From Staphylococcus phage LY01: a DNA stretch of 64,000 bases. The notes under the pieces were generated by a model. That model was not told the DNA's origin. It saw only the letters and a program-made list of their open reading frames with translations, and made no database searches. Each line of letters opens with the position of its first letter. Within the stretch, counting starts at the first letter, position 1. Positions 21,618 to 23,044 of the stretch are shown here, piece after piece. The stretch lies in the sequence record OR836606.1. One strand, 5' to 3'. Both the position numbers and the translations under genes were made by a program.

Positions 21618-21823
21618 AATCTCATAACATTTAAAACATTTTACAATAATATAATTAAATTTAATTAACTTAATTGTGTAGCAGTTTTAAACTGGATTTT
21701 TCGGTTTCTGTACTAAAAACACATTAGCTTAGATCAATTCATTTATAAAGTTATTCCTATTAATTTAATAGAAAGATCTTTATAAATGCTTCACATCAGA
21801 GAACCATTCGATTTTTATAAAAT
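21618..21823 (-). ncRNA. candidate omega-RNA / right-end region of the IS605-family element
   Basis: about 200 nt ORF-free segment at the 3' end of tnpB; motif GGGATTAACCTT spans the tnpB stop and recurs at the second tnpB copy. Confidence 0.3.
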
Positions 21824-23044
21824 CTAGGGATTAACCTTCCCCAATAAATATTTTCCTTCATTCATTAAATTTATTGCCGCATTGACATCTCTATCAATTT
21901 TATGACCACAAGAACATTTATAAGTTTTAGATTTCCCTATCTTATTTCTTCTTCCACAATTACTACATAATTGAGTCGAAGGGAACCATCTAGAAACTTG
22001 CACTAATTCAGAATTGAAAATATGTTGTTTATATTCTAATTGTCTTTTAACTTCATAGAAACAACTTTCAGCAATTGATTTTCTAATTCCTTTAGTTAAA
22101 TTATTCTTGTCAGCAATCATTTCTCTTACATCTAAATCTTCTAAAGTAATGTATTTATAATTTTTAACTAGAAAAGTAGTAAGTTCATGAACCATATTAG
22201 AACGAATATCTTTAATTCTTTTCCATGTACGTTGATATTTGATTCTCGTATCATTGTAATTTCTAGAATTAGGATTTTTACGTTTCATAATCTGATTATA
22301 AACTTTTGTACGATTATATAATTTCTCAAGCTTATCGATTTGTGAAGAAACTTCAAAACATTCACCATTTGAATCAAAAATAGTTGCGAAGGTTCTTACA
22401 CCTAAATCCACTCCACATATTTCTGCTGATTTGTGAGGAACTTTCTTAGGACGTTTCTTACCTATATCTATACAAAATGAAGCATACCATTTATCTATTT
22501 CTTTAGATATAGTAACTTCTTTAATAACTCCGTCAAATTTAATATCTTCTAATAGAGTTACTTCTGGAGATTTTGATAATTTTAATTTTCTACCATTTAA
22601 TTTAATAGCAGATTCATTTTTCCTATAATATCTACATGATTGAATTGGATCTCTTTTAGATTTAAATTTAGGAAATTTAGATATCTTATGAATTCTAAAA
22701 TTATCAAATGACTTTCCTAAATCAGCTATCGCAGTTTCAAATATCATAGAAGGTCTATCTTTTCTCCATGAAGTTTTTGTATACGGACGAACTATTTCAC
22801 GAACTACTCTTTCATCTGGTAAAAGTTTTCTAATGAATTTCTTAGATTCTTTATCTAATTTATCATCGTTAATCTTTTCAAAATAATTATGCATTTTACA
22901 ATAATTGTATCTCTTATTCCATTTTTCTAATCCTTTATTATAAATCCATCTTCTATAACCAAAATTCTTTTCGAACTCCTTTTTAGAAGGTTCATTTAAT
23001 CTTATCTGAACTTTTTGAGAAATATACATTTTAATGAATTGCAC
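21824..23044 (-). CDS. tnpB: TnpB-like RNA-guided nuclease (IS200/IS605 family OrfB), copy 1
   Basis: 406 aa; typical TnpB N-terminus (RLNEPSKKEFEKNFGYRRWIYNKGL); C-terminal RWFPSTQLCSNCG...CSCGH..DRDVNAAINL zinc finger and RuvC-III motif; no tnpA nearby. Confidence 0.85.
   Translation of the reverse strand: MQFIKMYISQKVQIRLNEPSKKEFEKNFGYRRWIYNKGLEKWNKRYNYCKMHNYFEKINDDKLDKESKKFIRKLLPDERVVREIVRPYTKTSWRKDRPSMIFETAIADLGKSFDNFRIHKISKFPKFKSKRDPIQSCRYYRKNESAIKLNGRKLKLSKSPEVTLLEDIKFDGVIKEVTISKEIDKWYASFCIDIGKKRPKKVPHKSAEICGVDLGVRTFATIFDSNGECFEVSSQIDKLEKLYNRTKVYNQIMKRKNPNSRNYNDTRIKYQRTWKRIKDIRSNMVHELTTFLVKNYKYITLEDLDVREMIADKNNLTKGIRKSIAESCFYEVKRQLEYKQHIFNSELVQVSRWFPSTQLCSNCGRRNKIGKSKTYKCSCGHKIDRDVNAAINLMNEGKYLLGKVNP

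Follow-up and report, generated by a model that had tools for sequence, protein, structure and literature searches.

Transposase-less IStrons and a free-standing TnpB module in Staphylococcus jumbo phage LY01, with predicted splicing and RNA-guided homing

Three genes for TnpB, an RNA-guided nuclease of the IS200/IS605 superfamily of insertion sequences (IS), lie in a 64,000-nucleotide (nt) stretch of the genome of Staphylococcus phage LY01 (sequence record OR836606.1; hereafter the window, whose positions are used throughout). The most probable interpretation, in which we have good confidence, is that two of these genes belong to IStrons (elements joining a group I intron to an IS) that lack the transposase gene tnpA, that another forms a free-standing module with its guide RNA (omega-RNA), and that the window also holds a mini-IStron without tnpB; splicing and RNA-guided homing are predicted, and mobility is part of the proposal. 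LY01 is an S6/Madawaska-like Staphylococcus jumbo phage with a genome of 258,897 bp. All three TnpB elements are missing from its closest sister phages, which thus provide empty sites for comparison, and each element, including the mini-IStron, is a precise insertion relative to them. A preliminary description of the window had called the three copies TnpB-only IS605-family elements. Their assignment to IS200/IS605-type TnpB without tnpA stands, but copies 1 and 3 prove to be IStrons, located in gyrA and in a gene for a protein of 1747 amino acids (aa), respectively; the structured regions of 545 nt and 247 nt upstream of these two copies and the splitting of their host genes had not been described. 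The order in both IStrons is a group I ribozyme, tnpB following helix P9, and a conserved structured 3′ RNA that ends at the last base of the intron.

The three open reading frames (ORFs), found where the preliminary description had placed them (21824..23044, 30341..31483, and 49102..50310, all on the minus strand), are intact and divergent. Each protein contains the Pfam domains HTH_OrfB_IS605, OrfB_IS605, and Cas12f1-like_TNB and scores 200–241 bits on the NCBIfam model guided_TnpB (cut-off 100). The C-terminal zinc finger and DRD motif noted earlier are present in all three, and by alignment so is the complete RuvC D-E-D triad (equivalents of D191/E278/D361 of ISDra2 TnpB), in the motifs GVDLG/GIDLG/GIDMG, LEDL/IENL/IEPY, and DRD. 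The triad alignments used a TnpB-like PDB chain with numbering that matches ISDra2, and the ISDra2 chains were matched as well; alignment to ISDra2 TnpB is nearly full length for copies 2 and 3 and covers residues ∼80–393 for copy 1. TnpB-3 has 402 aa (49102..50310). For tnpB-1, a start at ATG 23029 (21824..23029, 401 aa) is more likely than one at GTG 23044, because the GTG is itself part of the Shine-Dalgarno sequence and similarity to the copy in phage Machias sets in at the ATG. As previously stated, no tnpA of the Y1 HUH or serine recombinase type was found within the elements, and neither Y1_Tnp nor Resolvase was among the families listed (25 of 27) in a Pfam scan of the 50 other ORFs of at least 90 aa. 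TnpB-1 scored 201 bits on the IS200/IS605 TnpB model versus 165 on the IS607 model. TnpB-2 and TnpB-3 are 100% identical to proteins recorded for LY01, for which a second copy of TnpB-3 is also listed. Close relatives of TnpB-3 and TnpB-1 were not found in scans of IMG/VR. The TnpB-2 family comprises 3272 proteins at E≤1e-40, many of them on metagenomic contigs of ∼240 kb, which points to a widespread group of uncultured, TnpB-rich jumbo phages; homologs with 55–57% identity occur by the thousands on ENA metagenome contigs, and the three such loci retrieved lie on contigs of 38–238 kb.

IStron-3 occupies 1644 nt (48914..50557, minus strand), with boundaries that comparison with the empty site leaves unambiguous. 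In Madawaska and PALS_2 the site reads AACGTTGCTGAT|GATTATCATG (GCTGAT|GATTATC) within one 1747-aa gene, while in the window it reads GCGGAT|TGTTCATAACAGTCC...(1644 nt)...AACAAGACAG|GATTATCATG. Removing the element in silico restores the ORF of this large, structural-type gene (exons 50558-55138 and 48251-48913, minus strand) to 1747 aa with no stop codon. The 247 nt that precede tnpB-3 (50311..50557, minus strand) are predicted to form a compact group I ribozyme (fold z = −6.5) in which P1 pairs 50554-50561 with 50543-50550, places a U.G pair at the splice site, and is followed by P2 to P9; P1, P2, P4–P6, P8, and P9 are all present in the minimum-energy fold of this part. Just upstream of the element (50558-50563), the codon is GCG in the window and GCT in the empty sites, a synonymous change that gives better P1 pairing (GGAU with GUCC).

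Three relatives of IStron-3 in Machias, with 77–87% protein identity to TnpB-3, bring this family to four IStrons in four different genes. One is a precise insertion in a giant protein gene relative to PALS_2, another lies in a ‘virion protein’ gene that annotators had already joined across a ‘transposase’, and the third sits within the N-terminus of gyrB. The annotated start of that gyrB (L014/L016, 2165-3940) is the first codon after the IStron, and a short upstream exon (...LEGLEAVRHRSD|MYVGAIDG...) was missed. Homology at the DNA level between the window and the giant-gene element covers 50560..48914, that is, the element and the three bases that precede it. All four elements start after (C/T)(G/A)GAT and end in CAG; the targets are CGGAT, TAGAT, CGGAT, and CGGAT (TGGGT for the mini-IStron), and the 3′ ends are ACAG or CCAG. 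Compensatory changes are seen in the ribozyme helices of this family: P1 changes in step with the exon (GGAU/GUCC becoming AGAU/GUCU, and in the intron UGUU/AACA becoming UAUU/AAUA), all four IStrons and the mini-IStron keep the splice-site U.G pair, and P2 is capped by a GNRA loop in all copy-3-family elements. In the mini-IStron (27891..28186, minus strand, 296 nt), a compact ribozyme is followed by the final ∼105 nt of a right end of the copy-3 type. The element interrupts an HNH endonuclease gene that is uninterrupted in S6 (TGCTGGGT|TCCTAAATC), its in silico removal restores the HNH ORF with no stop codon, and its long-range helix is maintained through compensatory changes.

Downstream of each tnpB is a structured region resembling an omega-RNA, as the preliminary description had anticipated, with covariation in copies 2 and 3 and with conservation and a fold z-score of −3.1 in copy 1. 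In IStron-3 this region (48914..49115, minus strand) ends in AACAAGACAG and contains the GC-rich structured block that had been pointed out after copy 3 (fold z = −3.7, with covarying helices). In six aligned sequences of this family, including two metagenomic relatives at 45% protein identity, four specified helices were paired in 93% of cells, compared to at most 52% when the partners were slid, and 14 pairs had changed on both sides, compared to at most three in controls. The guide would then be GATTATCATGAATTTG. A perfect 14-nt long-range helix (50375-50388 with 48963-48976), conserved in the Machias copies, links the ribozyme to this region. The segment 48963-48976 has an alternative partner in 49104-49115, with which it forms the closing stem of the RNA scaffold at the tnpB end. 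In IStrons, splicing and guide-RNA formation have been shown experimentally to exclude each other (10.1101/2023.11.20.567912); the either/or pairing fits this published switch, and we infer that it may work as one. Separately, the ribosome-binding site of tnpB-3 is sequestered by a predicted hairpin at 50318-50350 (CUCCUAAC...UUAGGAGG), that of tnpB-1 can likewise pair with an upstream complementary stretch (GCACCU...AGGUGC, ∼23040-23085), and a comparable hairpin is found in three homologs of copy 2, which suggests that tnpB may be under translational control.

IStron-1 (21608..23607, minus strand, 2000 nt) interrupts gyrA. Madawaska and SA1 have the empty site, GATGGTGATATACC (GATGGTG|ATATACC), and the occupied site in the window reads GATGG[TG]TTTGTTAAC...TTGTTAAC[TG]ATATACC, so that the boundaries carry a 2-nt (TG) ambiguity. 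Exon 1 (23608..26362, minus strand) and exon 2 (20796..21607, minus strand), which encodes the C-terminal beta-pinwheel domain, join in silico into a GyrA of 1188 aa with no stop codon and 95% identity to that of Madawaska. Exon 1 also encodes an intein of 374 aa with a LAGLIDADG domain (24878-25999, minus strand), and gyrA is thus interrupted by both an intein and an IStron. The part upstream of tnpB-1 (23045..23607, minus strand; fold z = −5.3) is a large IA2-like group I ribozyme, with predicted P1 (23602-23611 with 23528-23537) and P2 (23507-23529), an R motif at 23286-23297, and an S motif at 23164-23172; over P3–P7 it aligns with IA2-like introns that precede TnpB in two metagenomic loci. 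Its predicted P1 pairs GGUG|UUUGUU with AACAUACACC, the G at the end of the exon being matched to C, an arrangement reported for group B IStrons (PMC4227781; PMC13565253).

Machias carries a homolog of tnpB-1 (89% protein identity) that has no intron; it lies after a terminator, in the place of a small lipoprotein gene of PB50. Homology between the two elements runs from 23031 (the start codon) to TTGTTAACTG and ends exactly at 21608, which fixes the right end and favors excision of 23607..21608. Both known insertions of the tnpB-1 lineage follow (G/T)GTG. The omega-RNA-like region of IStron-1 (21608..21850, minus strand) ends in UUGUUAACUG and is 87% conserved with Machias to its last base, and the guide would be the 3′ exon, ATATACCGTTAAATAT. 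The longest inverted repeat in the element pairs 23099..23129 (minus strand) with 21619-21649. This long-range helix (31 nt, 90% complementary), with one arm just past the ribozyme and the other 10 nt before the 3′ splice site, is predicted to juxtapose the 3′ splice site and the ribozyme core across the ORF.

Copy 2 has no ribozyme and stands alone between genes, and is therefore not an IStron. The module (30164..31498, minus strand, 1335 nt) consists of a 15-nt leader, tnpB-2 (30341-31483), and a 177-nt omega-RNA-like tail that ends in AGCAG. Its empty site in Madawaska and MarsHill (TAGGAG|ATGACTTTATATGTCAG) lies just upstream of a small gene, and its boundaries have a 3-nt ambiguity (AGA). 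That small gene encodes 113 aa in Madawaska and has been reduced by an in-frame deletion to eight codons in LY01 (MLEIRIEE*, 30137-30163, minus strand). The left end of copy 2 is truncated; leaders of its homologs are longer, and a hairpin masks the ribosome-binding site in them. On the 3′ side of the gene, four homologs (57–78% protein identity) align with the window as far as AGCAG and then diverge, which places the right end at 30164. In the consensus 3′ structure of the family, 14 of 25 pairs show compensatory changes. The preliminary description had proposed GG(G/A)ATTAACCTT as a right-end motif shared by copies 1 and 2. The motif is indeed present in both (AAGGTTAATCCC at 21827-21838 and AAGGTTAATTCC at 30331-30342, minus strand), but it marks the start of the RNA region; the true ends are AACTG (21608), AGCAG (30164), and, for copy 3, GACAG (48914), located 165–215 nt downstream. 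In the copy-2 family the motif forms a small hairpin whose pairing is kept by compensatory changes, and because this hairpin is part of the covarying consensus structure, we regard it as a real RNA feature.

Evidence that the 5′ parts of copies 1 and 3 are group I introns extends to other parts of the window. Classical group I core elements are found in both, among them the R motif TTCAACGACTA and the S motif GATATAGTC; the window has 11 copies of S, all of them on the minus strand, compared to a chance expectation of 0.8. Nine compact cores from the window and three from Machias can be aligned, the strands of P3, P4, and P7 being invariant, and nearly all have P5, P6, and P9 hairpins despite differing sequence, with P8 a stub of ∼10 nt in three. 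The P5, P6, P8, and P9 hairpins were judged by folding each segment separately. This took the place of RNAalifold on a MAFFT alignment of the same 12 cores, in which misalignment of the variable hairpins left P4, P5, and P7 as the only helices recovered. The S motifs (at 8412, 8611, 8812, 8994, 9746, 18911, 23164, 28046, 32239, 33000, and 50414) mark the cores of eleven group I introns that form one family; each lies on the minus strand and escapes detection by Rfam. One additional R motif, at 18746, has no partner S motif. The introns at 8400-9150 (minus strand) are spaced by micro-exons of ∼16, 38, and 28 nt, in a stretch that is uninterrupted in S6, PALS_2, and DC4 and that contains some introns in MarsHill and Madawaska. 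A 370-aa ORF (9825-10937, minus strand) that extends into the core of the intron with R motif 9920 and S motif 9746 is probably an intron-encoded homing endonuclease.

These features can be combined into a mechanism. The primary transcript of an IStron would either splice, restoring gyrA or the 1747-aa gene and so keeping the host genes working, or be processed at its 3′ end into an omega-RNA with the first ∼16 nt of the downstream exon as guide. The bases of the upstream exon that pair in P1 would double as the target-adjacent motif (TAM) of TnpB. TnpB with its omega-RNA may then cut the intron-less allele, which presents both TAM and target, of a related phage infecting the same cell, and recombinational repair would copy the element into the cut allele, amounting to RNA-guided intron homing without a transposase, a route by which it has been suggested that TnpA-less IStrons could spread (PMC13565253). 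Copy 2 would act likewise, as an intron-less, free-standing homing gene. The bases just before the targets of the three TnpB/guide pairs are GGAT, GTG, and GGAG. Predicted targets in sister phages have one to two mismatches per 20 nt, in most relatives beyond position 13, and at least the first 12 target bases are identical in the relatives except in SA1, with a mismatch at position 8 of guide 1.

Several observations count against this interpretation. The splice junction of IStron-1, atypical despite its resemblance to group B, is the weakest point of the analysis: a U.G pair is missing from the 5′ splice site, U faces U two bases into the intron, and two further in-frame splice pairs are possible. 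These pairs (GGT|...TTTTG| and GGTGTT|...TTTTG|), both with a U at the end of the exon, were ranked below exact excision because Machias homology extends to ...AACTG and the sister phages have no extra codons. Support for the 3′ RNA of IStron-1 comes from two sequences only, and the tail of copy 2 folds no better than shuffled sequence (z = −1.0), though it covaries. The empty site of copy 3 has CTGAT before the target, compared to GGAT or AGAT in occupied sites. Rfam identified no group I intron in the window at the gathering threshold, nor in the two IStron regions at E≤10; we take this as a limit of the models because motifs, folds, and covariation agree, although the caveat remains. Finally, homing alone cannot explain the presence of the copy-3 family in several different genes, so that a trans-acting transposase or illegitimate recombination has to be invoked; no candidate for such a transposase was found in the window.

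The introns could nevertheless splice while TnpB and its RNA are inert passengers, the elements being frozen relics that are inherited vertically. The lack of tnpA, the loss of the copy-2 left end, the existence of a mini-IStron without tnpB, and the weak fold score of the copy-2 tail would agree with this, but it sits poorly with three full-length ORFs that retain their catalytic and zinc-finger residues and with RNA helices kept by compensatory changes between copies that are 45–89% identical. Absence of the elements from the closest sister phages, moreover, implies that they were gained recently, and we consider the relic explanation distinctly improbable. For similar reasons (intact ORFs and triads, covarying RNA), the ordinary decaying remnants that the preliminary description had offered as its alternative are unlikely. 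It had tied that alternative to an absence of shared termini, which is the wrong test because the three copies represent different lineages; more can be learned by comparing them with paralogs in Machias and metagenomes than with one another. Another possibility is that plain IS insertions truly split gyrA and the 1747-aa gene, with the pieces translated separately and no splicing. Topoisomerase genes are split into separate polypeptides in T4-type phages, Rfam gave no intron match, and ORF callers report the halves as separate ORFs. However, the reading frames of the upstream halves extend only two to three codons past the junction, the downstream halves lack both a Shine-Dalgarno sequence and a plausible start, full ribozyme cores whose helices covary lie exactly at the junctions, and exact removal restores the frame in three of three cases, all of which makes true splitting very improbable.

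Other explanations concern what the nucleases do. They might chiefly be weapons of the phage against gyrA and structural genes of related competitors, with spread of the elements as a side effect. Targets that match the inferred guides do lie in essential genes of the sister phages, and phage homing endonucleases that exclude markers of competitors are known (PMC13565253). The cutting step would be identical to that of homing, so that sequence alone cannot separate the two, but the insertion site fixes the guide, as expected of a selfish element, and we think a primary role as weapons unlikely. That the TnpBs are instead domesticated, nuclease-dead, RNA-guided regulators similar to TldR would be in line with their location in a phage and the absence of tnpA. 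TldR proteins are marked by an inactivated RuvC site and/or a C-terminal truncation, whereas the LY01 proteins are full length with triad and zinc finger intact, and their inferred guides aim at their own insertion sites and at no promoter; we give this explanation hardly any weight. RNA-guided homing by TnpA-less IStrons and a free-standing module remains our preferred reading. A broader idea, which we advance only tentatively and think less probable than its converse, is that TnpB/omega-RNA modules have fused repeatedly with resident introns in S6/AR9-like jumbo phages and that TnpB may serve there as a transposase-free intron homing endonuclease that recognizes its TAM and target in uracil DNA. 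Repeated fusion is proposed because the same TnpB lineage occurs with a compact intron and with a large IA2-like intron, and another lineage occurs without an intron.

The setting of these elements bears on their significance. Genes flanking them have 82–94% DNA identity to the jumbo phages S6, PALS_2, Madawaska, MarsHill, SA1, AH12, PB50, and Machias; the G+C content of the window is 19–30%, and no tRNA genes were found in it. In S6 DNA, uracil is reported to replace thymine, and MarsHill-like phages are presumed to be the same (10.1101/2020.12.14.422802). Many introns have been reported for S6/MarsHill-like phages in that study, which does not mention their ‘transposase’ genes. Our literature search found no paper on phage LY01 and none describing its TnpB elements. 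For annotation, gyrA, the 1747-aa gene, and the HNH gene should be read as interrupted, not as split or truncated. The sister phages offer natural empty sites in which TnpB-driven intron homing, only a stated possibility in the literature consulted, could be examined, and three compact nuclease/guide pairs from phages that likely have uracil DNA could reveal whether replacement of thymine by uracil is tolerated by TnpB. The intron-less relative of tnpB-1 in Machias and the variation in intron type between related TnpBs bear on how IStrons are assembled.

Among known systems, ISDra2 TnpB with its omega-RNA (PDB 8exa, 8h1j, 8bf8) has the same domain order and catalytic residues as the LY01 proteins, and ISDra2 and the LY01 modules each have a 3′ structured RNA of ∼170–215 nt. 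Similarity of the LY01 proteins to ISDra2 TnpB is no more than distant, however (phmmer E = 1e-21 to 1e-38), and their elements have neither tnpA nor a left-end hairpin. Autonomous IS200/IS605 elements combine tnpA with subterminal hairpins at both ends, a combination absent from LY01, where the left end is occupied by the ribozyme in copies 1 and 3 and cut to 15 nt in copy 2. Copy 2 is instead reminiscent of the free-standing homing endonuclease genes of T-even phages (Seg, Mob), being a nuclease gene between conserved genes that is missing in sister phages and whose spot holds a different small gene in other phages. It would differ from these in recognizing its target through guide RNA and TAM rather than by protein alone, and in that the insertion itself would distinguish self from non-self.

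The description of IStrons dates from 2000, and a survey in 2014 covered those of Clostridium botulinum phages and ORF-B-only forms as well (PMC4227781). Lack of tnpA does not exclude the LY01 elements, because the family is accepted to include TnpA-less and ORF-B-only IStrons (PMC4227781, PMC13565253). Group A, which comprises CdISt1 of Clostridioides difficile and its relatives, joins a group I intron to IS200/IS605 (PMC4227781, 10.1101/2023.11.20.567912). IStron-3 is like it in having a 5′-terminal ribozyme with tnpB following P9, a 5′ exon that ends in U with a U.G pair within P1, a target ending in GAT (TTGAT in CdISt1), a 3′ end of ACAG (TCAG in group A), and a long-range helix together with an omega-RNA that overlaps the 3′ splice site. 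It differs in its lack of tnpA, in its very compact ribozyme (247 nt), which belongs to the same family as the many ORF-less introns of the phage, in being preceded by (C/T)(G/A)GAT and not by a T-rich pentanucleotide, and in its host, a jumbo phage whose relatives have reported or presumed uracil DNA. Against the definition of group A (target TTGAT/ATTAT/TTTAT, 3′ end TCAG), the IStron-3 family is thus close but not identical. IStron-1 resembles group B (BcISt1, CboIStron; group I intron and IS607) at its 5′ junction, where the G at the exon end pairs with C in P1, and has in common with it a G-rich target and a 2-nt identity between target and element end, as expected for a core dinucleotide. 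In contrast, its target ends in GTG and the element in CTG (GG and CGG in group B), a shifted U.G pair is not possible, a serine recombinase is missing, and the IS607 model gives TnpB-1 a lower score than the IS200/IS605 model does; the ends of IStron-1 follow the rules of neither group. The IStrons of C. botulinum phages c-st and D-1873 (CbISt3/4; PMC4227781) are phage-borne like those of LY01, but are of IS607 type with tnpA or its remnants and come from a different host genus; one TnpB locus of c-st that was examined had no intron core and was left out of the comparison. The LY01 IStrons are thus a clear new example of a described type of mobile element, of which phage-borne forms were already known, and what distinguishes them is their setting: a jumbo phage with probable uracil DNA, no transposase, varied ribozyme types joined to related TnpBs, and an intron-less relative of tnpB-1.

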